Source of the DNA: Acidobacteriota bacterium | GTDB lineage: Bacteria; Acidobacteriota; UBA6911; RPQK01; JAJDTT01 | Length of the DNA stretch: 64,000 bases | Assembly (NCBI GenBank): GCA_965209055.1 | Contig: OZ242374.1 | Span: 1,696,001-1,760,000 of the forward strand | Direction: 5' to 3' | The notes under the pieces: model-generated | What the model was told of the DNA's origin: nothing | The model's input: the letters and a program-made list of their open reading frames with translations, nothing else | Database searches by the model: none | Shown: positions 3,711-52,891 of the stretch, one piece after another | Position numbering within the stretch: the stretch's first letter is position 1 | How the letters are laid out: each line of letters opens with the position of its first letter | Translations under genes and position numbers: made by a program

Positions 3711-6566
3711 ATGCGCTGGAATCTGGGGCTGACCTTGCTTTTTCTGTCTTGCGCCGTTGCGGCCCGGGGCCAGACCGGGCCCAAGATCTGGCAGGAATCC
3801 AGCTTCGAGGATTTCGCCGACGGCCGCTTCGGAGACGGCGGCGCCAACACCTACGTTTCGCGGCGGGGGCGCATCCAGTTGGTGAATCGGTGGGATCTGA
3901 ACCAGGACGGGTTCATCGACCTGGTCTTCTCCAACACGCATCCCCACAAGGAGAAGATGGACGCGGCCATCTACTGGGGAAACGGCAGGGACTTCGACGT
4001 GTCCCGGCGCTCCTTCATTCCCAACGACGGCGCCCAGTGGGCGGCCTCCGGCGATCTGAACGGTGACGGGCGGATGGATGTCGTCTTCCCCAACTATACC
4101 AACGGAACTTGGGACGGCATGGATTCGTTCGTCTACTTCGGCGGGATCGAAGAATTGAAGACCCGCCGCGACGATTCGGCGTGGGGTTTCCACCCCTTTT
4201 CCAGGAAGATCTCCCTTCCGTCTCGGGCGGCCCAGGGAGCCGCCGTCGCCGATCTGAACCGGGACGGGCACCCTGACGTGATTCTGGCCCTGTCCGCCGG
4301 GTTCTGGGAATACCGCGTCGGCTTTCGGGACGGCGGTTACGATTCACCGTCCCGGGTCTTCTGGGGGTCGGCGCAGGGACCGGACCGGGAGCGCTATGTG
4401 GACGTCCCGGCGCTGGGGGCCTCGGACGCCGCCGTCGCCGATCTGAACCAGGATGGATGGCCCGATCTCATTCTGGCCAACCAGGAGGACAAGGGGAACC
4501 AGGACATCGACTCCTATGTCCTGTGGGGAGGGGAGAAGGGTTTCAGTCCCCAACGCAAGGTGGATCTTCCGACCCATCAGGCCTTTGCCGTGGAACCGGC
4601 CGACGTGAACGGCGACGGCCGCACCGATCTGGTGTTCGCCAACGGGAAGGGACCGGCTTCGTTCGTCTATCTCAACGGCGAGGAGGGCTTCTCGGCCGAC
4701 CGGCGCCTGGAGCTTCCCACCAGCGACGCCCGGGACGCCGCCGTCGCCGATTTCAACGGCGACGGCCACCAGGACATCTTCTTCACCAATCACCAGTCCC
4801 ACGGAAACCCGCTCACCCATTCCTATCTGTACTGGGGCTCTGAGGATGGGTTCTCCGAGGACCGGCGCCAGGATTTCGAGACGGTGGGAGCGTGGGGCGC
4901 CTCGGCCGCCGATCTGAATCGGGACGGGCACGTGGACCTGGTCATCTCCAACTACAAGGAACACTTTTCGTTCGAGGTTCCCTCCTATATCCAGTGGAAC
5001 TCGGAAGAGGGGTTCGCTCCCACCCGCCGCACCTCCCTCTTCACAACGGGAGCGGTGGGCAACCTGGTGACCGACTTCGACGGCGACGGGCACCTCGACG
5101 TCCTCTTCAACAACACGGTGGCGCGAAGCCGGGGCGGGGACAGTCCCATTTTCGTCTATTGGGGAGATGCGCACGGCCAATACAGCGTCGATCGGCGGAT
5201 CTCGCTGCCCGCCGTCGATCCCTATGAATGGGGATCGGCGGACCTGGACGACGACGGCTGGACCGATCTGGTGGTCTCCAACTTCGGCGAGACGGTCAGG
5301 TGGCGCCAGGAAAGCCACATCTACTGGGGTGACAGGCAGGGGTTCCACGCCGGCAAGCGATCCGCCCTGATGGGACGCGGCAGCGCCGGCGTGAGCATCG
5401 CCGATCTGGACCGGGACGGATGGCTGGACGTGGTCCTGTCCAACGTCCCCAGTGAGGAGTTGGCGGAAACGGGAGCCTTCGTCTACTGGGGCGCCGGCGA
5501 AGGGTTCGTGGTTACCGAGCGGCTGGAGCTGGACAACGGACCCACCGGCATCCCCGCCATTGCCGACCTGAACCGGGACGGACACCTGGACCTCCTGTTC
5601 TCGGCCAACGCGGAGGGCGTCCCCATCTATTGGGGCGACGGAAGCCGGGGCTACTCCTCGTCGCGCCGCAGTATCGTGCCCGGATCGGCCGGCCTCCGGG
5701 GCGTGGAAGTCGCCGATCTGAATCGGGACGGAGTGCTGGACCTGGTGCTGAGCCGCTCCATCGAAGCGGGCTCCCGGGCGACCACCGGGTTCGTCTATTG
5801 GGGTGCGGGGGAGGGAGAATACTCGGCCGGCCGGCGCACCGAATTCGAGATCGAGGGGACCAACCTGATCACGGTGGCGGACGTGAACCAGGACGGATGG
5901 CTGGACCTGGTGTGCCCCAACTACAACACCGGATCGAGCCGGGCGACACTCTCACGGGTCCATCTGGGCGGACCCGACGGGTTCGACCCGAAGCGGATGT
6001 TCAAGCTGCCCACCAACTCGGGGGCCGGAAGCATGGTGGCGGACTTCAACCAGGACGGATACGCCGACATCCTCTTCGTCTGCCATCGTTCCGAGGGGGA
6101 TCCCAACCGGATCGGCTCCTTCGGCGATCACGTCACCAACTCCTTACTCTACTGGGGAGGAGGCGACGGCTTCCGGGCGGACCGCCGTCTGGAGATCCCG
6201 GTCCGCGGACCCCATAACGACTCGGGAGTGGACCTGGGCAACATCTACGACCGGCGTTTCGAGTTCGACTACGTCTCGTCGGCGCACTCGTTCTCGGAGG
6301 GCCGTCCGGCCAACCTGACCTGGAGGGCTCAGACGGCCCATGGCAGCCGGGTGCGTTTCCAGATCAGAACGGCCGAGTCGGAAGAAAAATTGGACGGCGC
6401 CGCGTGGCGGGGACCCGGCGGTCCGGCGACTTTCTTCGAGCATCCCGCCGCAATCCCGGATACGGACCCCTCACATGCGGTGATTCAATACCGGGCGACT
6501 CTCCATCCGGCCGCGACGGGAGTCGTATCGCCGATCCTGGAAGAAGTCGTGGTGCTGTTCCGGTAG
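3711..6566 (+). CDS. Secreted FG-GAP/VCBS repeat protein
   Basis: RBS GGAGG, signal peptide, many ADLNxDGxxDLV repeats each followed by YWG. Confidence 0.85.
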   Translation: MRWNLGLTLLFLSCAVAARGQTGPKIWQESSFEDFADGRFGDGGANTYVSRRGRIQLVNRWDLNQDGFIDLVFSNTHPHKEKMDAAIYWGNGRDFDVSRRSFIPNDGAQWAASGDLNGDGRMDVVFPNYTNGTWDGMDSFVYFGGIEELKTRRDDSAWGFHPFSRKISLPSRAAQGAAVADLNRDGHPDVILALSAGFWEYRVGFRDGGYDSPSRVFWGSAQGPDRERYVDVPALGASDAAVADLNQDGWPDLILANQEDKGNQDIDSYVLWGGEKGFSPQRKVDLPTHQAFAVEPADVNGDGRTDLVFANGKGPASFVYLNGEEGFSADRRLELPTSDARDAAVADFNGDGHQDIFFTNHQSHGNPLTHSYLYWGSEDGFSEDRRQDFETVGAWGASAADLNRDGHVDLVISNYKEHFSFEVPSYIQWNSEEGFAPTRRTSLFTTGAVGNLVTDFDGDGHLDVLFNNTVARSRGGDSPIFVYWGDAHGQYSVDRRISLPAVDPYEWGSADLDDDGWTDLVVSNFGETVRWRQESHIYWGDRQGFHAGKRSALMGRGSAGVSIADLDRDGWLDVVLSNVPSEELAETGAFVYWGAGEGFVVTERLELDNGPTGIPAIADLNRDGHLDLLFSANAEGVPIYWGDGSRGYSSSRRSIVPGSAGLRGVEVADLNRDGVLDLVLSRSIEAGSRATTGFVYWGAGEGEYSAGRRTEFEIEGTNLITVADVNQDGWLDLVCPNYNTGSSRATLSRVHLGGPDGFDPKRMFKLPTNSGAGSMVADFNQDGYADILFVCHRSEGDPNRIGSFGDHVTNSLLYWGGGDGFRADRRLEIPVRGPHNDSGVDLGNIYDRRFEFDYVSSAHSFSEGRPANLTWRAQTAHGSRVRFQIRTAESEEKLDGAAWRGPGGPATFFEHPAAIPDTDPSHAVIQYRATLHPAATGVVSPILEEVVVLFR

Positions 6567-19968: not shown

Positions 19969-20559
19969 TCATCGGAGAACTGGAACCACGGGCAAGGTCG
20001 TGAAGATACGGTTGTCGGCGTCCATCTCCAGGGCCAACCCCGTGAACCTCCCGATGTCTGGCACGGTGCAGCGCACGGACCCCTCGAAGTCCGAAGTGAT
20101 GGTCTTGGCGAACAGCTCGTGGATGAACTGCGCCGTCTGTCCGTTGCCGGCTATTGAAATTTCCTGCTCTTCCAATGCCCTGCCGGCGCGCATCAGTTGG
20201 CATGTGACCTTGATCGCATTCTTCGTCAGGTTGCGGATGGCCATCCCTGTGCGAATTCCTCTGATTTGGTGTCGAGCCGGGAAGATTGCATCCTGGACGG
20301 CCTCACTGGCGCCGACTCCTGCGACGCCAATCTCTGGGTGGTCGAACCGCAGGAACCCACCGATTGGACCGTCTGCGACAACCTTCACCGAGCCAGTTGT
20401 CAGATCCCCCCGGCCGTGGGTGGAGATCGTGAGTTCCCCTAGTGGGACCAATGGCGTCTCCACGGTCAAGGCTCCATCGCTCTGGATCTTAAGGCCGATT
20501 ACCAGGTCCAACATCGCCTCAGGAGGAATGAGGGCTCCTTCACCGTCGTAGAATTGAAT
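19969..20559 (-). pseudogene. 3' fragment of the IS-interrupted LRR gene
   Basis: IQFYDGEG... continues in frame from ...GPIHPVIQ at 25361; second copy of the C-terminal domain of the LRR protein. Confidence 0.85.
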
Positions 20560-20598
20560 GGGGATTATACAGTTGACTAGGCACTCCTGCATTCCTGG

Positions 20599-20898
20599 TC
20601 ACTTGGGGTGAGCAATCTCGAAGCTCACGATCAAAGAAGCCTCGTGACTTTCCCCATCGCCCATCCTTTTGGCTTCTCGCAAAGCTCGGAACGCTCTTTC
20701 CATAACCGTGAGGTCCGCCCTCTCAAGTCTACGATTGTTGCAGATAGGACAACAATCGATGCTTTTTGCTCTGAAGGAAGGGCCAGGCCCTTTCAGTGAG
20801 AAGACCGTTTCGCCCTTACACTTTTCATCAGGGCAGATGACCCGCATCTTAAGAATGTCTTGAGCTCCGAAAACAATCCTTTTTTCCTTCACTATCAT
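20599..20898 (-). CDS. Small Cys-rich (possible Zn-ribbon) hypothetical cargo protein
   Basis: CPDEKC...CPIC; TATAAT and GGAGGT immediately upstream. Confidence 0.6.
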   Translation of the reverse strand: MIVKEKRIVFGAQDILKMRVICPDEKCKGETVFSLKGPGPSFRAKSIDCCPICNNRRLERADLTVMERAFRALREAKRMGDGESHEASLIVSFEIAHPK

Positions 20899-20926
20899 AC
20901 CTCCATTATACTAGTATTTTATACAG

Positions 20927-22543
20927 TTATTCGGAAGAATCAGGACACCCTTGTGGAGGATCAGATGCTGAAACGTTTACTGGATCAGTGTCTTTCCAAT
21001 ACGTCACCTTTGCTTCATAGAACTCAGAATAGTTCGGATGTTCAGGCAATTGGAGTTTGTAACCTCTAGGGTGTTTCCAAATGTCATCAGATGGCACCCG
21101 AATAGACTTCTTGTACCAAATAGGTGATCCAGCCCAAGGTCGTTGATAAGTCACTTCCACTGGATCTGCTTCTTCCATTCGTCGGTGATATGCACTGAGA
21201 TTTGGGTTGTCACTACTTGTTGAGCCGGAGAAGGAGCCCGAACCTCCTATCCTTTCGTGCAGGTGTAATTTGGCAGCGGCAAGGCATTGGCTTTCACCGT
21301 ATTCGGTAATCCAAAATATCTGAGCACCGGTTACATAATCGATTATTGGAGCATACCGAGAATTTTGGTGCGCTCGTCTTTTTCCCTCGTACGGAGGGGT
21401 AGGATAAATCTCAATCCTCTGCACGGCGGGTAGTTCTCCTGTTCTGTCTCTTCTAAAAGCTCCGACGTGGAGGGCTTCATCCCCGGAGACGTTATCAGGA
21501 GCATGAGTAGGGCCTACTCCACCATTTTGAGACAGGACATCCCACCAACCGCCTGGAGAACAATCATCTGGAGAAACGGGAGACGGCCCATCCCAAAAAC
21601 GACGCCAACGCAAAGCGTGCCAATCAGCGTTTCCTTGTTCTCGAGGAAACAACTCCAAAACCATTAAGGTTCGAGGCAGGTAGTCTAAATCGTTGTCTAC
21701 TTCAAGCAGATAGTTGGTGAACCTACCAACCACACGACGATTGACTCGATAGAATTCGGAACCCACATTGATCCCAAACTCATAGACTGGTATTACGATT
21801 TCATCAGTCAGGGTACGGACACACTCATGGGTCTCCAAAACTTTGGGATTTAGATGGTCGTATTCTTTAACGGGAGCCAAAGATGCTTCTACACGACTGC
21901 CACGACTGCATTGAGTCTCATCTAGGATAAAACGGTGTATGGAAGATGCTCCTGGACTCAATCCATAATCTCGTATTGGAAGGACGGTTTTGTCTCCGAC
22001 AGGAATGAAAGGCGTCGCAAAGTAACTGCCTGGGTTCTCAATTGGATCGTACTCGGTGATCCTCCATTGTTGGACGCCTTGACAGTCGTTTCCTTTGGTA
22101 TTCGCTTGGAGGTAAGAAAGATGGATAATCTGGCCGTCATGATGATCTTGGTCAAGATCAACACTTAAGTTACATTGCTCATGTATCATATGAGGGATGT
22201 CTCCGTAAGGAGTTGAGAAGACCCCTCCCTTCGCCCCTGTAAGAAACGCAAACGCAATCAAGACCCTCACAACCTTTTTCGATGTGGAGTTCTTTGATTC
22301 GTTCCGGTCCTTAATCCACAAGATAATAGCAATGAGCAAGGCAAAGGGCAGAGCAGTAAATACGAGTGTTGCTAAGATTGCAGCAATACCTAATCCGCTC
22401 AGTGTCAACCCGAGCAGGATAGATCCTAACGATCCGCTGGCGGCAAGTATGACACCACCTGCGATTATAAGAACTGCAACTAACCCGTGTATACCTTCCT
22501 TATTGTTGAGTATCCCTTCGCACATCTCCCGGAAATCTCGCAT
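20927..22543 (-). CDS. Hypothetical membrane-anchored cargo protein, 538 aa
   Basis: Long ORF in lower-GC DNA, RBS GAGGAGG, N-terminal hydrophobic helices; no family recognised. Confidence 0.65.
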   Translation of the reverse strand: MRDFREMCEGILNNKEGIHGLVAVLIIAGGVILAASGSLGSILLGLTLSGLGIAAILATLVFTALPFALLIAIILWIKDRNESKNSTSKKVVRVLIAFAFLTGAKGGVFSTPYGDIPHMIHEQCNLSVDLDQDHHDGQIIHLSYLQANTKGNDCQGVQQWRITEYDPIENPGSYFATPFIPVGDKTVLPIRDYGLSPGASSIHRFILDETQCSRGSRVEASLAPVKEYDHLNPKVLETHECVRTLTDEIVIPVYEFGINVGSEFYRVNRRVVGRFTNYLLEVDNDLDYLPRTLMVLELFPREQGNADWHALRWRRFWDGPSPVSPDDCSPGGWWDVLSQNGGVGPTHAPDNVSGDEALHVGAFRRDRTGELPAVQRIEIYPTPPYEGKRRAHQNSRYAPIIDYVTGAQIFWITEYGESQCLAAAKLHLHERIGGSGSFSGSTSSDNPNLSAYHRRMEEADPVEVTYQRPWAGSPIWYKKSIRVPSDDIWKHPRGYKLQLPEHPNYSEFYEAKVTYWKDTDPVNVSASDPPQGCPDSSE

Positions 22544-22581
22544 GACCCCTCCTCTCGACTTGGGTAGAATGGTGGGATGGA

Positions 22582-22674
22582 GGCAGGGTGGACGAAGATT
22601 GGATTAAGTCGCCCGACTGAAAATCGGGTAGGGTTGAAAGGCCCTCGCGGGTTCAACACCCGTCCCTGCCACCA
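22582..22674 (+). tRNA. Atypical long-variable-arm tRNA with GAA (Phe) anticodon
   Basis: GGCAGGG/CCCTGCC acceptor, GAC/GTC D-stem, CCCGA-CT GAA AA-TCGGG, V-arm AGGGTT-GAAA-GGCCCT, GCGGG-TTCAACA-CCCGT, A73, encoded CCA. Confidence 0.8.
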
Positions 22675-22704
22675 TCAAGCATCAATATATGATACTTCCC
22701 ATAT

Positions 22705-22968
22705 TCACAGGGGCCAGGTTGGGAACGGTGGAGGAGTCAGCCAGACACACTCATCATTGAAGATTCTCAATGTCCAGCCGTTTTCCTTCTCGCGGAACTT
22801 GGCATGAGCTCTCAACGCTCCTCGGTTGAGGGATTTCACTTTCCATAGCACCGCAGTCTCTTTCGAGAGTCTGGCCAGGTCGGCCCAGGTGATTGGGCCG
22901 TGGACTGACATGAGGTGATCGAGGAATCGAACGTGGTGTTTGAATTCGTGGGGTGCTTTGTGGGACAT
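22705..22968 (-). CDS. Small hypothetical cargo protein, 87 aa
   Basis: AGGAGA RBS before ATG 22968 (MSHKAPHEF...). Confidence 0.45.
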   Translation of the reverse strand: MSHKAPHEFKHHVRFLDHLMSVHGPITWADLARLSKETAVLWKVKSLNRGALRAHAKFREKENGWTLRIFNDECVWLTPPPFPTWPL

Positions 22969-23010
22969 CGACGGGTCTCCTACGCTGTCCAGGTGGAATC
23001 CACCGTGGAC

Positions 23011-23209
23011 TGTTGTCTGCAATCAGCACCCCAGTGCAGATAGGGAGCCGGGTCATCGCAGACAACGCATAGGAAGTCGGAAGTGCTCTTCCAGTCCCTG
23101 CCTATTCGCCCCGTCCGATTCATGACGTCGCACGGTTTATAATGCCTTTTGTATTTGGCAGGTGACCCGGCACAGGATGCGCCACGGGAAACCTACGGCT
23201 GTCTGCAAT
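23011..23209 (-). ncRNA. Predicted structured RNA unit, copy A
   Basis: Interleaved pairings GCAGACAGCCGTAGG/CCTATGCGTTGTCTGC and GCCGGGTCA/TGACCCGGC; conserved in copy B. Confidence 0.55.
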
Positions 23210-23373
23210 GCCGATCATAACAGACAGGACTGGAACGCTCAACTGCCGCTACTCTCGGGAACGGCTCCTCCCTACGCGGGGCAGAGCCCGCCATGATCGT
23301 GAGTCCAACAACCACCTCCTACGTTGCCCGAAAAATTAGCAATCAAAACCAAAATGGCGATGCCTCCGAGCGG

Positions 23374-23555
23374 GTTGTCTACGCCGACGATCCCACGTCT
23401 GCACATTGTGGGAGCCGGGTCATTGCAGACAACACGTAGGAAGTGAAGTTGCTACTTATTTACTCAGCAAGGTCATGACTCCTTGCGATTACGAGCTATT
23501 GCATTCAGTAGCTGACCCGGCACACTTGCGGGAGAACCCTTAGCGTTGTCTACGG
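23374..23555 (-). ncRNA. Predicted structured RNA unit, copy B
   Basis: 23410-23444 matches 23043-23077 at 32/35; same pairings with G-U variants. Confidence 0.55.
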
Positions 23556-23666
23556 GTGGATCTTACTGGAAGGAGGGCTGGATTGCAAACCCGCCCCACC
23601 CACAAAATTTTTCGAGCACTCGAAATACTTCTGAGGTTTGCAGTACAATACAGGTTACAACGAAGA

Positions 23667-23747
23667 TGGCAGGCGCCCCAGGCAGGATTCGAACCTGCAA
23701 CCTTCGGCTGCGATACCGTTGCTCATCCATCTGAGCTTCTGGGGCGC
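23667..23747 (-). ncRNA. tRNA-like RNA (Arg-like body, 6-nt anticodon loop containing TCG)
   Basis: GCTC-AGATGGAT-GAGC D-arm, GCAGG-TTCGAAT-CCTGC T-arm, 9 bp GCGCCCCAG/CTGGGGCGC stem; TATAAT at 23754-23759. Confidence 0.65.
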
Positions 23748-23864
23748 TTCGCCATTATAACCTACTCGGAGGGCAGAAAATGCGTCGTGGGAAGAACCGC
23801 AAGCCAGTTGACATTTTAGCCTTGGCAATGCAGAAAGCGCATCAGCAGGTCAGAGACGGGGACC

Positions 23865-24836
23865 TCAATTCTGAGACTCGTCCGACTCATCATCAGCAGT
23901 CAGATCAAGATACATCAGACGACGGCCGACCAGTCCCGCCACGATGTGCTTCATCTGATCAATAGTATCCAGCTCTCGGATATTGTGACGCTTGGCGAAC
24001 TCACTGACGTATCGGTGTAGGTGCTTTTCACTCATCTTGTGGAAAGTGCCCGTGTAGCCGCGTTTTAACATCGACCAAAAGGACTCCATGCCATTCGTGT
24101 GTGCCATGCCTCTGACATACTCGCCTACTGTGTGCTTGACAGATTCCCGTCTATGGCCCATCCAATCGTAGGCTGGATTCTCGTCTGTGTATGATCTCAC
24201 CCACAAGACAGAGTTTTCCAGGATGAACGTGGAAAGTGTTGCCTTGGTTGTATCGGGAACAACCCTAGCCCTGATCTGATTGGTCGGACGATCTTTCATT
24301 CCCACAACTGCGACTTTGCCAACAGACCCTCGACCAGAGAATTGAGCCCGGCGCTTGGCACTCATATTCCGCCTCTTGCCTCCAATGTAAGTCTCGTCAA
24401 TCTCCACCGGCCCGGACAGAGTCTCTGAGTCGTCCTCGGTCCAGGATTGCCGAAGTCGATGAAGCATGAACCACGCTGTGGCTTGTGTCACATCGATGTC
24501 TCGGTGGAGTTTCATTGAGGAGACTCCCTTGAGGTTCGTAATGTAGATGAAGATCGCCAAGGCCCATTTCTGTAACGGGACGTGGGATCTGGCCAAGGTC
24601 GTGCCAGTGCGGACTGAAAAGTAGCGCCGACAGTCAGAACACCAGTAAGGTTGAGGCCGTCGTTTCGGAGTCTCGTTCGTCTTGACGCTGCCGCAATGCC
24701 CACAGCATCGCTCATCGGGCCAGAGTACGGACTCGAACCATTTTTCCGCGGATTCCTCATCCGGGAACATCTTGAAAAGTTGGATCAGTGAGATTCCTTG
24801 TCGGTAAAACTTGCCTGGAGCTTTTGCTTTCTTCAT
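23865..24836 (-). CDS. IS1595-family transposase
   Basis: Zn finger CGHC...CSDC, VEIDETYIGG, YTDE, HTNGMESFWSMLKR. Confidence 0.95.
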   Translation of the reverse strand: MKKAKAPGKFYRQGISLIQLFKMFPDEESAEKWFESVLWPDERCCGHCGSVKTNETPKRRPQPYWCSDCRRYFSVRTGTTLARSHVPLQKWALAIFIYITNLKGVSSMKLHRDIDVTQATAWFMLHRLRQSWTEDDSETLSGPVEIDETYIGGKRRNMSAKRRAQFSGRGSVGKVAVVGMKDRPTNQIRARVVPDTTKATLSTFILENSVLWVRSYTDENPAYDWMGHRRESVKHTVGEYVRGMAHTNGMESFWSMLKRGYTGTFHKMSEKHLHRYVSEFAKRHNIRELDTIDQMKHIVAGLVGRRLMYLDLTADDESDESQN

Positions 24837-24966
24837 TGTCTCCCTCTCAATTTCCTGAACATTTTATCACAGGACCCTGACATTTTTCTGTAGTAAGTCC
24901 TTTGTTATGTTTAGTTTACACAGATTGTCGTGAGGGCAGTACAATAAAACATGATGGCGGAGGGAT

Positions 24967-25075
24967 GGACACAGCGGGGTACGATCCCGCGACCTCCCAG
25001 TTCTAAGTGCCCGTGGTAGGAAAAATTTTGGGCACCAGAGCCGGGTGTTCTGCCAGCATAAAGAACTATGCGGCC
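24967..25075 (-). ncRNA. tRNA-like RNA with 33-nt insertion in the anticodon loop
   Basis: GGCCGCA/TGTGTCC, GTTC/GAAC D-stem, CCCGG/CTGGG, AGGTC V-loop, GCGGG-ATCGTAC-CCCGC; TAGAAT at 25091-25096. Confidence 0.6.
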
Positions 25076-25127
25076 TTCGTCTCCGCCATCATTCTACCAG
25101 ATTTCCAAGGGGAAGGGAAGATGGTGA

Positions 25128-25292
25128 GGCGCAAAGATTCCTGGCTTTCGGCTCTCCCAAGTGGCTTTCTTGTGGCAAGGGCCTGGGCTGGGGTTACATG
25201 CCCTGGAAGATCGCATCAAACTGGGCGCAAAGATTCCTGGCCCGGGCCTGGGGGAACCTGAAGCTGGGCCTAGGCTGGGGTTACGCGCCCTG
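25128..25292 (+). repeat. Two tandem hairpin units with conserved arms and variable cores
   Basis: GGCGCAAAGATTCCTGGC at 25128 and 25224; GGGCCTRGGCTGGGGTTACRYGCCCTG at 25179 and 25266. Confidence 0.75.
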
Positions 25293-25358
25293 TTGACCAT
25301 CGTAGCGGGTTCGATGTCTTTGGTCAATCAGGGGTACCTAGTCAACTGTATAATCCCC

Positions 25359-27526
25359 AATTGAATGACTGGGTGAATCGGGCCCGATGCTACATTCACG
25401 AGCACCAAGTCGGAAGTGATGGAGGAACCGTTGGCGAAATGGGGGAAATGCAAATGCATGTTGTCCTGCGTGCGCATCGGTGGAACCGGAACCACGGGCA
25501 AGGTCGTGAAGATCCGGTTCTGGAAATCCATCTCCAAAGCCACACCGGTGAACAGAGAATCCTCGGGAGCCATGCACCGAACCGATCCCACGAAGTTCCC
25601 CGTATAGGTCTCGGGGAATAATTCATCAATGAACTGGGCCGTCTGGCCGTGTCCAGCCAGCGGGATATCCACGTCGCCACGCAAGTTGTTCCTTTGCGTC
25701 AGTTGGCAACTCACGGTGATCGGATCCTCTCCCCGGTTACGAATCGCCACTCCAGTATTGATTCCTGATTCTTGGCGCCGCACAGGGAAAATCGCGTCCT
25801 GTACGGCTATTCCCGTACCCACCCCGGCGACTCCCATGTCCGAGCTGTCAAAGCGCAGAACTCCCCCGATGGGACCGTCCGCCACAGCCCTTGCCGATCC
25901 CGTGACCAAATCCCCTCGGCCATGGGTCGAGATCGTGAGTTGTCCCAGGGGTTCTATTTCCTTCCGTACGGTCAGGGACCCGTCGGCCCGGATCAAACGA
26001 TCCTCTCCGACATCCACTATGGATGCCGGGTCTATGAGGTTTCCCTCGGCGTCGAAAAAGTAGAGGGCCGGCTGGATGGGAGTGGCTCCAACATTCACGA
26101 ACACCAACTCGGAGCGAATGGACGCCCCGTTGGCAAATTGGGAGAATTCCAAGGAAAGTCCTGCCAGTACAGTCAGCGGCTCGGCAGATCTGATAAACGT
26201 GTAACCAAGACTGCCCCCAAGCTGGAGCGGGAGCTGTGCGATCTCGACGGTGACCGGAGAAGTCGTTCCAGACTGTCGAGCCACCGAATAAACGTCGCTT
26301 GTCTCTCGCCCTGCGGGAATCGTGACGTGGGATGAATCCCCGCGAAGCATGCCGTTGGTTACAATGATCCGCAGACGGATCTCAAAGGGTGCGCCAGTAG
26401 GCACTCTAAGCTGGAATCGGCCTGGAGCCACCCATTCCATAAAAACGTTGATGAGTAGACGATGCGCCGGATTGTTTCTCATCGTGAAAATTTGCATGGA
26501 AGAGAGACCGAAGAAGATGCCATCTGGCAGGCTGGTCAGCCTATTGTTGTCCAGATAGAGAGTTCGTAGTGAGGAAAGACCGGAGAACGCTCCCGCCGGC
26601 AAACTAACCAGTTTATTCCCACTCAGTACAAGCAGTTGCAGTGTAGAAAGTTCAGCGAAGGCTCCTACCGGAAGGGTAGTCAGCGCACTGTCATTCAGGA
26701 GGAGAGTTCGTATTGAGGTGAGGCCGGAGAACGCTCCCGCCGGCAAGCTGGTCAATTCATTCCCGCCCAGATGGAGATGTATCAGCGAGGAGAGGCCGGT
26801 GAAGGCCCCCACCGGCAGGGTGGTCAGCGCATTGTGAGACAGGCGGAGAAGCTTTAGCGAGGAGAGGCCGGTGAAGGCCCCAGCTGACAGGTTCATCAGC
26901 CCGGTCAGCGGCGTGTTGGGAAAGGATGAGTTGGAAGCACTAGCCAGGTTGAGTTCTTGCAGTGAGGAGAGGCCGGTGAAGGTCCCCGCCATCAGCCCGG
27001 TTAGCTTAGTAAATGACAGGTTGAGTTCTTGCAACGAGGGGAGGCCGGTGAAGGCCCCAGCCGGCAGACTGGTCAACTTTGTACTAGACAGATCGAGAGT
27101 TTCCAGTGAGGAGAGCCCGGTGAACACTCCCGCCGGTAGAGTGGTAAGGGGAGTCAGGTTCAAATAGAGCGTTGTCACCGAAGAAAGTCCCGAGAAATCG
27201 CCGACTCTCAACGCTGTCACTGGTGGCGGCGGCCGTCGTTCGCGGCTGGGGTTGTTCCAATCGGGCGAAGAGTAATACCCGCCGTGAAAAAACTCGCCCT
27301 CAATCGCAGCCAGATGAACCTCGGTCACGTCGGTGCAATCATCTATCCCCGACACCAGACTCACGATCTCGTCGCGCACCTCCGGGGTCCTGTCGCAGAC
27401 GGGGACGATCTGAGCTACGACTGGCTCTGACGCGGCCAGCAGGCCCAAGCTCAAGGTGACGGTTAACAGCGAGCTTCTGGATCGCTGCCGGCAACGATGC
27501 AGAATCTTCGAAAAGTGGACTGACAT
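25359..27526 (-). pseudogene. Secreted leucine-rich-repeat protein, 5' part (interrupted by IS1595 element)
   Basis: RBS GGAGGAG, signal peptide, 24-aa LxxLPxGxFxGLxSLxxLxL repeats; the predicted ORF ends in TIR-derived LGIIQLTRYP. Confidence 0.85.
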
Positions 27527-27724
27527 CTGAATGGCTCCTCCAGGTAGACGGTAGCGGCTCATACTGTATTCAGGGATGCAGAGGGGCTCCTGCTGGCCGA
27601 ATTGTAGTCCGGCCCACCGATCCGGTGGCCCGGGGCCGTACCTCGTTTTTTCCTGATGGGGTCACCGAGTCAGGGGGGTGGCCACGATTTCGGGAGTCCC
27701 AAGTCACACCGAGGGAGATGGACG

Positions 27725-27769
27725 ACGGCCATTAATTTCAGTTTACGGACGCGCTCCAGGGTCTCGCCG
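27725..27769. repeat. dif-like site 4 / direct repeat upstream of the LRR gene
   Basis: ACGGCCATTAA-TTTCAG-TTTACGGACGC, same spacer as site 3. Confidence 0.55.
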
Positions 27770-27943
27770 ACTCCGAGGGCCTCCAGAGTCGATTACAAGA
27801 ATTCGAAAGCGGATCCAACACGTAATTTCGGTCGGGACGCTCTCGGAGGGCTTATACTTCTTCTGGGCCGCGTTTCCGGAGGGCCATGAGTTGATCCGGA
27901 GTTCCCAGGTCTCCATGCAATAGGCAGCTTAGGGGCGCATGAG

Positions 27944-28762
27944 GTGAAGCATCCACCACAGTTCGAACGCATCATTGCAGCCCGCCATCCGGTCCACATT
28001 AAGGCCTTCTGCGTTGGTCAGGCAAAAGCTGGCACAGCATCACTCGTCGGACTGTTGTCAGCCAACTACCGTGCTGCCCATGAGCCTGAGCGCGCGGAGA
28101 CGCTTGAGGTCATCCTCCGCGAAGCTCGAGGCGAAATCTCGTCAGCGGCCATGAGGTCCTATCTTCACGATCGGGCCGCGCGGCTCGACCTTGAGTATGA
28201 CGTAGCTTGGGCGAACCAGTTCATCATCGATCACCTGTTGTCCGTATTTCCAACTGCGAGGTTCATCGTCCTGATTCGCGACTGCTACACGTGGCTCCGG
28301 TCGATCATGGGTCATTTAGTTGGCCGCGACGTACCCCGCGACGTTTTGGATTTCCTCCGGTGGTGGTTCAAGCCAGAGCTGCATCCACACAATCCTCACG
28401 ATCAAATTCTTGCGGATCTCGGTCTTTTTTCGATAGCTGCGTATCTATATGCGTGGAACCGGCACGTTGACACGTGCACCGGTTCGATTCCCGTAGATCA
28501 GCGACTGATGCTGCGGACGCACGAGTTGGACTCATCACATCAACGCCTAGCGGAGTTTCTACAGATACCGGTGGGATCGCTTGATAGCGCATCTGGACAC
28601 CGGAATCGCGGCAGGTGGTCGGAGCGGATTGAGTCCCTCGTGGAGCCAGCTTACATTGACGATATGGTCCATTCAGTCTGCGGCGCCAACATGCAGCTGC
28701 ACTTTCCCGAAATCGGAAGCATTCACGACGTTTCGAGATTAGGGGCCGATCGCGGCACCTGA
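27944..28762 (+). CDS. Sulfotransferase-family protein
   Basis: FCVGQAKAGTASL (5'-PSB loop), HEP, ARFIVLIRD...WLRS. Confidence 0.7.
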   Translation: MKHPPQFERIIAARHPVHIKAFCVGQAKAGTASLVGLLSANYRAAHEPERAETLEVILREARGEISSAAMRSYLHDRAARLDLEYDVAWANQFIIDHLLSVFPTARFIVLIRDCYTWLRSIMGHLVGRDVPRDVLDFLRWWFKPELHPHNPHDQILADLGLFSIAAYLYAWNRHVDTCTGSIPVDQRLMLRTHELDSSHQRLAEFLQIPVGSLDSASGHRNRGRWSERIESLVEPAYIDDMVHSVCGANMQLHFPEIGSIHDVSRLGADRGT

Positions 28763-50236: not shown

Positions 50237-52891
50237 TCACAGCGATTTCGCTCCGAAGCCCTCCAGGGTCCAGCCCACAACCCATCGGGAATGGTTGTCG
50301 TGCCCGGAAGCTGCGTTGTCGGCATCGACGGGGGCCACCGACTCGAGATTGGACTCCCGGAGAAATTCTTCCATCTGCGAACGATGCCCATACATGGCCA
50401 CCAGGAAGCGAATGGGATCGACCTGGGCCAGCAGTTCGGTCTCATAGGCGTCGATGCCGTCGGCGCCCCCCTTGATCAGTCCTAACGCCCGTTTCAGGCC
50501 AGGCACGAGATTGGTCAGACCGGCGCCGCCCCGGGGAACCAGGAGGCTGCCGTCCTGCGCATTGACGTGGGTCCAGGAGTGGGTCCCGCCGGCGCCGATG
50601 TAGGCCGAGGCGCCCATGCCTGCCACGATGGGAATCCCATAGAGGCGTCCCAGATCCAGATAGGGACAGATATCCTGGCCGGCCTGCCCCCTGAGGTCCT
50701 GCAGCGGGTCGAGCTGGACCTGGTCGACAAGCTTCTCGCGGCACCAGCGCTCCACGTCCAGACCCTGCGCCAGGTTGTGGAACAGACCCGCCGCCGGGAT
50801 GCGCACGGCCACGGGAACGGTCCGATCGAGGGCGGCGAGTCCGGCCTTCAGGTCGCGCAGCACCTGGGTGAAGAAGTCCGCCCGCCAGCGGACCCAATCG
50901 CGGTAGGGCCGTCCGGCGGAGACGTCGATCTTTCTGGGGTCCACCCCGGTCGCCTTTCGATAAGCCGCGACCATCTCAGGGTTGTAAAGGAGCATGGGGA
51001 CCTGGCGGTCGCATCCCACCAACAGGCCGTCCGCCCCCCGCTCGGCCACCTCCAGCAGGATATCGACCCGTTCCTTCCGGACCTGGGGGAAGTAGTAGCT
51101 CAATCCCCTGGAGTCGGAACCGTCCTTGGCGATCCTCCACCATTGCTGATGCCGCCGGTAAAACTCGCTGGCGAATATGCCTCCGTAGCGGTCGGCGCCA
51201 TAGTGGCGCTGCATGGCCAGCCAGGGCCAGACCTGCGCGCGGCAGTCTTCCCGGGTCCCGTTGACCTGGGTCAAGGCATCGTATTCGTTGATCATGTGGA
51301 TGCGCCGGCCGTAGTCGTGGGGGGAAAAATCCCGGTTTTGCTTCGCCTCCTCGTAGGAAGCACAGGGGAAACGGGTCGTCCGGGGAAGCCGGCTGTGGTA
51401 CTCGACCCATGACCGGCCCACCGACCAGCCGATGGCCCCGAATCCCAATTCGGACTGTCCGCAGGCGATGCTCCGAAACTGGTCCGGAAGGAGCCGGGCC
51501 CAGACCACGTCGAAGTAACAGGCCCAGTCGTTCACCGCCGACAGCGGCGTTGGCGGCGAAGACATCCGGTTCTTGAGCTTCCGGGCCGATTGGGGCGTGA
51601 CCGGAACCAGCCGCAGGAGGGTGGCCATGCCCCGCTGTTGGCCGGCCTTCTTCCAGTCGAGCCACCTCCCGGGATCGCCGGCAGAGTAGAAACGAATGAC
51701 TTCTCCGGTCAGATCCGCGGCGGTGACGAAGGTCTCCTCCCCCAACTGGGTCGGCGGAGCGTCCCGAATCAACCCTTCCCGGCCCACCTGAACGTGCAGA
51801 CCCGAACCTCCCGTCCCCAGGAAGACGGCATAGGTCCCCTCGACGGGTGGACGAAAGGTCGCGGGAGGGGAGGTGTAGTCCCCTCTCCCCACCAAGGCGA
51901 CGCCCTCATTGGGAAGTGGTTTCCATTCCCAGGATTCCGCGTCGAGGGGACTGTCCCCCCAACGGCCGTGGGCGCGCCGAAAGTTGCGGACCCGGATCTC
52001 GGGACGCCCGGGGTCGATCCGAAGACGCCAAGTGGCCAGGGGGGTGAGCGGGAGACTGTCCGGCGGCCCGGTTCTCCGCCGGTAGTCCAGGGCGGGGCCG
52101 TCCGGCCAGAGCCGCCCACCCACCTTGGGCAAAAACTGCACCCGGTAATTCCCGTCGGGCCAACCCTCGACCGGCACCGGAACCTTCCGAATTCCCTCTT
52201 GGCAAGTCAGCGTCAGCTCCCTGGTCCAGAGGGACTTGCCGGAGGCGTCAAAGATCCTCATCTCGCCCTCGACTCGCTCCGGTCCGGCGCCGGGACGAAC
52301 CTCTGCCAACAGGGAAAGACGATCCTGGTGGAGGAGGACGTCCGGGTGCATCCGAAGCGAGATCAGATTGGCGGAGGCCAGCTTGGGATCGAATACGACC
52401 CGCTCCGGTCCGCCGTCGACGAAACGCAGGGCCTTGACCGGGAGCCCGCCCTCGCCCATCCCCAGCCGTTCGGTCGTCACCTCCCGGCTGAGTTGCTGGC
52501 GGAAAACCCAGGTCTTCGTCCAATCGCGGACTGTCACCTGGAGTTCGATCCGGTAGCCGCGAAAATAGACGGCGCCCGCTTCAAATTCGTAACGGCCGGG
52601 AGCGGTCAGAGGTCCCAGGTCGAAGCTGATCCGGCGCCGGAACGATCGAGTCTCGGTGACGGTCCGGCCGAACGGCAGACGCCGGGTCACCCGTCCCTGG
52701 AACTCCAGGTCTCCAGGCTCGAGAACGGTGAAGCTCAAACGATGGTGGACTCCCGGAACCAGCTGCAACTCCCGGCCGGCCGGATCGAGGTCCACCCCAT
52801 CGAAGGAGAGCTTCACCCCGGCAGGGGTTTCGGCGGCCACGGGAAGTGGGATCAGAATGCACAGAATCGAAAGACGTCTCCAGGTCCTCAT
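50237..52891 (-). CDS. Large secreted hypothetical protein, possibly glycoside-hydrolase-like
   Basis: Signal peptide; C-terminal ...PQVR...ADGL...WVRWRADFFT...QGLDVERW pattern. Confidence 0.5.
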   Translation of the reverse strand: MRTWRRLSILCILIPLPVAAETPAGVKLSFDGVDLDPAGRELQLVPGVHHRLSFTVLEPGDLEFQGRVTRRLPFGRTVTETRSFRRRISFDLGPLTAPGRYEFEAGAVYFRGYRIELQVTVRDWTKTWVFRQQLSREVTTERLGMGEGGLPVKALRFVDGGPERVVFDPKLASANLISLRMHPDVLLHQDRLSLLAEVRPGAGPERVEGEMRIFDASGKSLWTRELTLTCQEGIRKVPVPVEGWPDGNYRVQFLPKVGGRLWPDGPALDYRRRTGPPDSLPLTPLATWRLRIDPGRPEIRVRNFRRAHGRWGDSPLDAESWEWKPLPNEGVALVGRGDYTSPPATFRPPVEGTYAVFLGTGGSGLHVQVGREGLIRDAPPTQLGEETFVTAADLTGEVIRFYSAGDPGRWLDWKKAGQQRGMATLLRLVPVTPQSARKLKNRMSSPPTPLSAVNDWACYFDVVWARLLPDQFRSIACGQSELGFGAIGWSVGRSWVEYHSRLPRTTRFPCASYEEAKQNRDFSPHDYGRRIHMINEYDALTQVNGTREDCRAQVWPWLAMQRHYGADRYGGIFASEFYRRHQQWWRIAKDGSDSRGLSYYFPQVRKERVDILLEVAERGADGLLVGCDRQVPMLLYNPEMVAAYRKATGVDPRKIDVSAGRPYRDWVRWRADFFTQVLRDLKAGLAALDRTVPVAVRIPAAGLFHNLAQGLDVERWCREKLVDQVQLDPLQDLRGQAGQDICPYLDLGRLYGIPIVAGMGASAYIGAGGTHSWTHVNAQDGSLLVPRGGAGLTNLVPGLKRALGLIKGGADGIDAYETELLAQVDPIRFLVAMYGHRSQMEEFLRESNLESVAPVDADNAASGHDNHSRWVVGWTLEGFGAKSL

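Follow-up and report, generated by a model that had tools for sequence, protein, structure and literature searches.

Introduction

Irregular tRNAs, among them inactive ones, have been described in the Acidobacteriota, and ties of their genes to transposable elements or toxin-antitoxin loci have been proposed in the available parts of these sources (Mukai et al., Nucleic Acids Res 2017, PMC5389517; review PMC7609411). The accessible text of the former also states that some of them carry the G3:U70 pair, the main alanine identity element, and were charged with alanine in E. coli (PMC5389517). Such molecules have been known since 2017; decoding, a decoy function and assistance to mobile elements are the roles considered for them. 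Here we analyse a tRNA-like gene with a hairpin inserted in its anticodon loop (the focal gene), located at 25092-24951 on the minus strand of a 64,000-nt stretch of contig OZ242374.1 from an Acidobacteriota bacterium (GCA_965209055.1). This whole stretch is called the window; all positions are window coordinates, G000 is the genome of the window, and the other genomes are coded G004, G005 and G010. The gene was noticed in a preliminary description, and our analysis confirmed it as first described. With moderate confidence, we regard it as a tRNA-derived passenger of a 4.8-kb IS1595-family transposon and as an unspliced, non-decoding and probably decaying irregular acidobacterial tRNA.

The focal gene resembles the published allo-tRNAs and irregular tRNAs (PMC5389517) in its acidobacterial host, in its linkage to a mobile element, since it lies inside a transposon, and in an anticodon that does not match the identity elements. 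As far as the available text of PMC5389517 goes, allo-tRNAs have acceptor/T branches of the 8/4 or 9/3 type (12 bp) and a long variable arm, whereas the family studied here combines a 7-bp acceptor with a 5-bp T stem (7/5), a variable loop of 4-5 nt and anticodons for Leu, Phe or Ser; in the published tRNAs the extra loop is placed between the acceptor stem and the D stem, whereas our insert is in the anticodon loop; and a helix enclosing the cloverleaf, called here the outer helix, is a further difference. Six motifs taken from our sequences do not occur in the sequence tables of PMC5389517, and the accessible portions of PMC5389517 and PMC7609411 gave no description of carriage in a transposon with defined terminal repeats and target duplication.

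The vehicle recalls the “transporter IS” of the IS1595 family, insertion sequences (IS) with passenger genes (Siguier, Gagnevin & Chandler 2009, cited in PMC3129680). In common with the family, it has a DDE_Tnp_IS1595 transposase, terminal inverted repeats, an 8-bp target duplication and genes unrelated to transposition inside its ends; unlike theirs, its cargo consists of irregular tRNA genes and an orphan cysteine-rich protein. No report of tRNA cargo in an IS1595-family transposon was found in literature listings or in the accessible parts of these papers, and such reports may exist elsewhere.

With the short-intron tRNAs of archaea and eukaryotes, the focal gene shares a short anticodon-loop insert that pairs with anticodon nucleotides, but it has no bulge-helix-bulge, its insert lies near U33 and not at 37/38, and its bacterial host is without the splicing endonuclease domain. 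Genuine short-intron tRNAs that were met by chance in a metagenome scan (L149 and L154) look different from it. Group I introns in bacterial tRNA genes are self-splicing and hundreds of nucleotides long; they too interrupt a bacterial tRNA gene in the anticodon loop, whereas the insert here measures 33 nt, which is far too short for a self-splicing intron. YrlA has tRNA-like D and T arms and a long helix, as does the focal element, whose termini are on the acceptor side, whereas those of YrlA are found in a helix that takes the place of the anticodon stem. A Y RNA of this type was considered and rejected; no Rfam family except tRNA matches the element at E ≤ 1. The tRNA scaffold is said to go back to Ponchon & Dardel. 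Engineered tRNA scaffolds and aptamer-tagged tRNAs, in the available account of PMC7590224, also display a hairpin on a tRNA body, but they are designed constructs, whereas the insert here is natural and without a shown ligand or target.

The transposon that carries the focal gene

The segment 20560-25358 is an IS1595-family transposon of 4.8 kb, with perfect 22-bp ends and an 8-bp target duplication, AATTGAAT. Target duplications of the IS1595 family are 8 bp long. The transposon interrupts a leucine-rich repeat (LRR) gene, which is now split into the open reading frames (ORFs) 19969-20592 and 25328-27562 on the minus strand. Residues 1431-1728 of a 1920-aa LRR paralog align up to 25358 and residues 1726-1919 align from 20559, so that the flanks correspond to one frame; the upstream LRR ORF reads through the target duplication into the terminal repeat and then stops. 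The GC content is 0.51-0.54 inside the transposon against ~0.63 outside, and the 20-30 kb region lies below its surroundings. The matched ends, the target duplication and the split LRR gene together identify 20560-25358 as a transposon with passenger genes. The focal gene is one of these, and its relation to the transposon is that of cargo to vehicle, both within the terminal inverted repeats. The transposase starts 114 nt downstream of it on the same strand, in agreement with the preliminary description. The 4.8-kb transposon is single copy in G000; a sister copy in G005 with a different target duplication points to past movement of the transposon lineage.

Antisense to the 3’ end of the transposase, at 23780-23965 on the plus strand, there is a 61-aa ORF whose peptide RKPVDILALAM is kept in G005; it could be a small gene, or reflect the mere conservation of the IS end. 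A lower-depth contig from the sample that provided the DNA runs described below has the 5’ region of the transposase (24829-24964) and the terminal repeat (25337-25358) in common with the window. Between the shared parts it has 726 other letters, against 372 here, and different flanking DNA follows. It could represent a sister transposon in which other cargo takes the focal position, but the hint is weak, as the shorter side of the joint measures only 22 nt. Elsewhere in the genome, at G000:C1:6066994-6068365, a 1.37-kb segment between inverted copies of GGGGATTATAGACTTGACTACA, a sequence akin to the transposon ends, probably represents a plain IS from this family.

Anatomy and detection of the focal gene

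The preliminary description had reported a cloverleaf with a 40-nt anticodon loop holding a GGTGCCC/GGGCACT stem, enclosed by a perfect 12-bp inverted repeat that partly overlaps a TAGAAT. All of these are present on the minus strand (Table 1): the repeat arms are 100% complementary, and the overlap of the 5’ arm with TAGAAT is 2 nt. Linkers of 5 nt and 3 nt separate the cloverleaf from the 5’ and the 3’ arm, respectively, and a U-rich tail follows the 3’ arm. Three G·U pairs are compatible only with the minus strand. TAGAAT is located 15 nt upstream of the 5’ end of the inner tRNA, and ordinary tRNA genes of G000 have TAGAAT- or TATAAT-like boxes 10-18 nt upstream; the box was uncalled in a promoter consensus scan because it has no good -35.

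The Rfam tRNA model gives the focal element 29.3 bits, against a gathering score of 29, and skips 36 nt of the anticodon loop. The z-score of its fold is -4.2, and 0/200 shuffles fold equally well. ARAGORN, proposed as a check in the preliminary description, leaves the element uncalled at default, and its intron search returns 0 genes in 3/3 settings. The molecule departs from a canonical elongator tRNA in its 40-nt loop, in candidate anticodon nucleotides that are paired in the predicted fold, in its T-loop AUCGUAC and in the C3×U70 mismatch; the T-loop consensus is U54 U55 C56 R57 A58. In 4/4 DNA runs (one sample, one study), a 2480-nt contig spans 24829-25400 with 0 differences and without a joint deleting the 33 nt, although the four runs are not independent of the assembly, because the sample is probably its source. 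A plain DNA search with the 171-nt element returned the self-match only (1/1 in its own genome; 1/61 relatives), and Tandem Repeats Finder found nothing in 22600-25400.

By itself, the perfect 12-bp inverted repeat carries little weight: four loci in the window combine such a repeat with a loop of ≤150 nt (11 k-mer hits), against 1.3 hits on average in 30 shuffles. Other perfect inverted repeats with arms of ≥12 bp and loops of ~100 nt lie at 34826-34843/34943-34960 (18 bp) and at 51834/51940. Between the terminal repeat and the focal gene, in 25128-25292, there are two pairs of short direct repeats, of 18 nt (100%) and 27 nt (89%), with a spacing of 87-96 nt. The motif TATTGTACTGC is found 3’ of three different irregular tRNA genes, at 24936-24946, at about 23640-23655 (tRNA-like #2) and just past position 2858 of L065, the G005 locus; read from the other strand, it gives a -10-like TACAAT aimed back into the tRNA gene.

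Table 1. Features of the focal gene and of the transposon that carries it, in window coordinates. R1 and R2 are the covariance models described in the following section.
Feature	Position	Strand	Basis and remarks
-10-like hexamer TAGAAT	25091..25096	-	read directly; TGG before the hexamer gives the extended -10 form
Outer helix, 5’ arm ATGATGGCGGAG	25081..25092	-	repeat search; 12 nt, 100% complementary to the 3’ arm
Outer helix, 3’ arm CTCCGCCATCAT	24951..24962	-	repeat search; followed by GTTTTATTG (24950-24942) and the motif ATTGTACTGC (24945-24936)
Inner tRNA-like cloverleaf	24966..25075	-	Rfam RF00005 29.3 bits; R1 47.9 bits; R2 73.7 bits
Acceptor stem GGCCGCA / TGTGTCC	25075-25069 / 24973-24967	-	C3×U70 mismatch, G5·U68
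D arm, stem GTTC / GAAC	25066-25047	-	read from the sequence
Anticodon stem CCCGG / CTGGG	25045-25041 / 25000-24996	-	read from the sequence
T arm GCGGG-ATCGTAC-CCCGC, RNA loop AUCGUAC	24990-24974	-	read from the sequence
Discriminator A	24966	-	read from the sequence
Anticodon loop, 40 nt	25001..25040	-	7 native nt (CU...UAGAA) and the 33-nt insert
Insert hairpin GGTGCCC / GGGCACT	25036-25030 / 25012-25006	-	closes a 17-nt loop (25029-25013)
IS1595-family DDE transposase, 323 aa	23865..24836	-	Pfam DDE_Tnp_IS1595 2e-35 (full-length), Zn_ribbon_IS1595 5.9e-5
Terminal inverted repeat GGGGATTATACAGTTGACTAGG, transposase-proximal end	25337..25358	-	target duplication AATTGAAT at 25359-25366
Second terminal inverted repeat	20560..20581	+	22/22 nt identical; target duplication AATTGAAT at 20552-20559
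Cargo tRNA-like #2, anticodon CGC, 6-nt loop	23674..23745	-	Rfam 48 bits; missed by ARAGORN
Cargo tRNA-like #1, class II (long variable arm), Phe anticodon GAA	22582..22671	+	Rfam 44 bits; ARAGORN tRNA-Phe, 88 nt
Cargo gene, 538-aa cysteine-rich orphan protein, hydrophobic segments at the N-terminus	20927..22543	-	no Pfam or NCBIfam match

The family of class-I irregular tRNAs

The focal gene belongs to a small family, which was searched with two covariance models, R1 from the G005 copy and R2 from six aligned members. R2 matches ordinary tRNAs in 137/137 genomes of the class, so only the gap in its scores is informative: the six full members (4 genomes), which are also its training set with the focal copy included, reach at least 73.7 bits, the next matches have at most 65.2 bits, and 16/16 runner-up matches examined contain ordinary tRNAs according to ARAGORN. 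The members are the G005 copy (GAA), the G010 copy (loop CCUAGAA, UAG), two copies in G004 (CAG and GAG), the focal copy and a second G000 copy at 1817262-1817362 (GCU); a further, 5’-truncated copy lies at 3164145-3164204 of G000. The counts for the transposase, for the family and for the 137 and 401 genomes include an unpublished genome, G016, on which no specific claim depends. A metagenome scan with a 20-base pattern of the T arm and acceptor gave 29 loci, 0/29 of them at the family score (≤49.2 bits against 73.7); by eye, 23 are ordinary tRNA genes that begin GGGC(C/T)CAT and 6 are not tRNAs. The pattern GGCGGAG..GGNCGCATAG occurred at four places in 15 family genomes, namely the two known copies and two chance matches in coding sequence.

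A MAFFT alignment of two homologs was thrown off by the insert and discarded. In the six-sequence alignment, 96.0% of the cells are paired, against 77.1 ± 2.3 in shuffles and ≤49.4% in slid controls. Both sides change in 18/31 pairs, with 0/500 shuffles as high, and compensatory pairs are found in all five helices, the outer helix included. This covariation analysis, of a kind suggested in the preliminary description, is limited in weight by the six sequences and by an alignment fitted to the model. The outer helix is kept with different sequences in the relatives, with 8/10 modelled pairs changed on both sides; it has 12 bp in the focal copy, 11 bp in G005 and 8 bp in both G010 and G004a, and is weak in G004b and G000b.

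The acceptor stem of the family is of the alanine type; position 3:70 is G·U in 4/6 members and G-C in one, and only the focal copy has it unpaired (C×U). The discriminator is A in three of the four G3·U70 members, and the acceptor stems of the G004 copies are that of the host tRNA-Ala(GGC). From the G3·U70 pair and the host-like acceptor, the intact members are predicted to accept alanine despite their Leu or Phe anticodons. The T-loops are AUCGUAC in the focal copy, UCCGAAG in G005 and UUCGAAG or UUCGAAA in the G010 and G004 copies; the independent changes in both transposon-borne copies suggest relaxed constraint.

The anticodon-loop insert

In the predicted fold, the insert and a UCUG/UAGA pairing lengthen the anticodon stem to an arm of ~15 bp capped by the 17-nt loop, in which U33 pairs with A37 and the candidate anticodon, all three nucleotides of it, is paired with the beginning of the insert. 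The arm has 1-nt bulges only and the fold has no 3-nt bulge pair, hence no bulge-helix-bulge, in keeping with the preliminary description. The insert is unique in G000, where only chance matches of 12-14 nt occur, and is carried by 1/6 family members, the focal copy, being absent from all 5 relatives. Deletion of 33 nt beside U33, at 25038-25006 with 2 nt of ambiguity, gives the loop CUUAGAA, near the G010 loop CCUAGAA, and by economy of position the most economical insertion site would be beside U33 of an ancestral CUUAGAA loop.

The tRNA-splicing endonuclease domain PF01974 has 0 matches in G000, which is 98% complete, while the control search was positive in 4 archaea. G000 has an RtcB ligase gene, which is common in bacteria, since the control search was positive in 10/14 genomes. 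No Rfam intron family matches within 22000-28000 at E ≤ 1. The archaeal-type splicing signals and enzyme are absent, and the insert is very probably not a new kind of bacterial tRNA intron.

The sister transposon in G005

The closest copy of the transposase is 79% identical and belongs to G005, a genome of the same genus. There it is part of an 8.6-kb transposon with related terminal inverted repeats and its own target duplication, TATCCATT; the terminal repeat pattern was found in 2/401 sampled genomes of the phylum. This transposon carries a cysteine-rich protein (35%) and eight Rfam tRNA or tRNA-Sec-like matches, six of which are named by ARAGORN as Leu-CAG (two), class II Phe-GAA, Ala-AGC, Ala-CGC and Ala-GGC; the three Ala-anticodon tRNAs have C3:G70. 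The focal homolog is among the two left unnamed by ARAGORN; it has a TAGAAT, an outer helix of 11 bp with nearly identical sequence, the inner cloverleaf and a normal 7-nt anticodon loop, CUGAAAA, and it is located downstream of the transposase and not upstream. The two transposons share cargo tRNA kinds: a class II body with GAA, a member of the class-I family and Ala-anticodon tRNAs. More widely, the transposase family has a match at E ≤ 1e-40 in 29/61 related genomes, and a tRNA lies ≤1.5 kb from the transposase in 2/20 related loci scanned.

At L065:4550-4650 (plus strand), the G005 transposon has a 101-nt tRNA match with a very long variable arm. Its two Leu-CAG genes (L065:2767-2855 and 5256-5343, plus strand) score best with the tRNA-Sec model, at 34-37 bits, which is below gathering. 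A guide RNA for the transposase was another candidate, rejected on account of the sister copy without the hairpin; DDE transposases of the IS1595 family are not known to be RNA-guided.

Interpretation of the focal gene

We favour the view that the focal gene is an irregular tRNA of the transposon cargo that has lost decoding. Its own TAGAAT box probably drives transcription, as such boxes appear to do for host tRNA genes, and the RNA would fold as a cloverleaf with an anticodon arm lengthened by the insert. It would stay unspliced after processing and, with no splicing, would not decode; the insert, C3×U70 and the non-canonical T-loop suggest a translationally dead and probably decaying copy, that is, a pseudogene. 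In this regard, the unspliced tRNA mimic of the preliminary description is supported by the lack of a bulge-helix-bulge and of PF01974 and by the short insert. Several points weigh against this view. The computed minimum free energy favours a non-cloverleaf pairing, and the cloverleaf is 5.5 kcal/mol higher. Transcription from TAGAAT would begin within the 5’ arm of the outer helix, so that the full 12-bp helix would exist only in read-through RNA from an upstream promoter-like site (25327-25299). The family has only six members, and a fit to the model underlies the covariation alignment. The ancestral anticodon is in doubt, because the closest relative has GAA and plain removal of the insert gives UAG. 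In addition, apart from the acceptor pair 3:70 every helix is intact, with perfect pairing in the outer helix and a clean hairpin formed by the insert; if the copy were simply decaying, the damage should be more scattered, and a selected non-decoding role is thus possible.

Such a role is the core of an explanation that we consider possible but doubtful, in which the gene is a functional non-decoding tRNA-like RNA: a scaffold presenting the 17-nt loop or the long arm, as a decoy, a regulator or a partner of the transposon or of a host factor, or a tRNA whose anticodon is “caged” by the insert. The retention of the four cloverleaf helices and of a perfect outer helix, and the stacking of a clean 6-7 bp insert hairpin on the anticodon stem, agree with it, as do the presence of the same cargo tRNA kinds in both transposons, which suggests that the set is retained, and the published acidobacterial irregular tRNAs, which, in the available parts of the report, include translation-inactive members with other proposed roles (PMC5389517). 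It is opposed by the restriction of the insert to a single family member and a single place in the genome, by the defects of the T-loop and acceptor, which point to relaxed constraint, and by a blastn-short search in which no target exceeded 12-14 nt of identity or complementarity (E-values ≥0.7). Nor is there a partner protein; the cargo protein looks secreted and cysteine-rich and not RNA-binding. Rather unlikely, in our judgement, is a broader idea in which the two IS1595-family transposons would carry around a conserved kit of mis-matched tRNAs. Such a mobile module would cause deliberate mistranslation or decoy tRNA-directed enzymes, and the focal gene would not be dead but encode a tRNA that is naturally “caged” or serves as a scaffold. 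The kit comprises alanine-type acceptors combined with anticodons for Leu or Phe, a class II body of Leu type that has a Phe anticodon, and Ala anticodons on bodies without G3·U70; in the predicted fold of the focal gene, U34, A35 and G36 are masked in cis by pairing with the first three insert nucleotides (CUG).

The other explanations deserve much less credit than our preferred reading of a decaying passenger. If the gene were a true intron-containing tRNA, some nuclease and RtcB would excise the 33 nt and leave the anticodon UAG (or CUG). The normal 7-nt loop restored by the deletion and the presence of RtcB are in line with this, but RtcB is widespread, neither the bulge-helix-bulge nor PF01974 is found, the implied site is beside U33 and not at the canonical 37/38, the exon parts are defective (C3×U70; A54 and U58 in the T-loop) and the ARAGORN intron search finds nothing, all of which make it very improbable. 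We give just as little weight to a role in cis as leader of the transposase mRNA, with control over transposase expression, the other half of the proposal in the preliminary description. The short distance and shared strand would suit it, and structured, promoter-preceded hairpins also occur upstream of two transposase paralogs, but these hairpins are plain and not homologous cloverleaves. The idea fails on position, because the G005 homolog lies downstream of the transposase and the conservation with the 5’ region of the G005 transposase starts at 24926, past the element; this conserved stretch has, by eye, its own -10-like box, TGATAAAAT. The U-rich tail after the outer helix and the 18/20 related transposase loci with no tRNA ≤1.5 kb away also argue against a leader. 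It is scarcely credible that the cloverleaf arose by chance, or that the gene is a miniature inverted-repeat element with the 12-bp repeat as its ends: such a repeat occurs ~1 per shuffled window and the Rfam score is marginal, but homologs with compensatory changes exist in three other genomes, the element is single copy in the genome, its 12-bp arms have no flanking target duplication, and the outer helices differ in sequence among the relatives, unlike ends recognised by a transposase.

The locus offers a clean genetic frame for the question of what irregular tRNAs do, as it consists of two transposons with defined ends and target duplications and parallel sets of irregular tRNAs, and one natural variant has its anticodon arm rebuilt by a hairpin. 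Testable here are the travel of these genes as cargo, the misreading of Leu or Phe codons by the alanine-type members, and the need of decoding for their retention. The interesting part is the vehicle and its tRNA kit, more than the focal gene itself.

Other cargo genes

The cargo of the 4.8-kb transposon comprises three odd tRNA genes including the focal one, a 105-aa ORF and the 538-aa cysteine-rich orphan protein. tRNA-like #2 has an upstream TATAAT, pairing between leader and trailer and C3:G70, and its position relative to the transposase is that of the three Ala-anticodon tRNAs in G005. tRNA-like #1 has an upstream TAGAAT, which the scan called as a promoter-like site, a GAUGG leader that pairs with a CCAUC trailer, discriminator A and an encoded CCA; its G005 counterpart is at L065:4664-4752. 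The cysteine-rich protein has seven invariant cysteines and looks secreted rather than RNA-binding. It has a paralog at 35% identity in the G005 transposon and another, at 24%, next to a G000 transposase paralog. A search of 1.84 billion representatives gave 14 relatives at E ≤ 1e-3, and a word-based search gave one, P0001, which is 93% identical.

At G000:C1:2734737-2739500 (L124), a transposase paralog (58%) is followed by two tRNA-Ser(AGA) and a tRNA-Gly(GCC) and then by a paralog of the cysteine-rich protein, and no terminal repeats were found there. A34 is unusual in bacterial Ser tRNAs. The genome, with 63% GC, also has six tRNA-Leu(UAA) genes, at G000:C1 477237, 1381642, 1991443, 2104898, 2524782 and 3018716, and the flanks of 4/6 are near-identical, as if they belonged to a repeated element.

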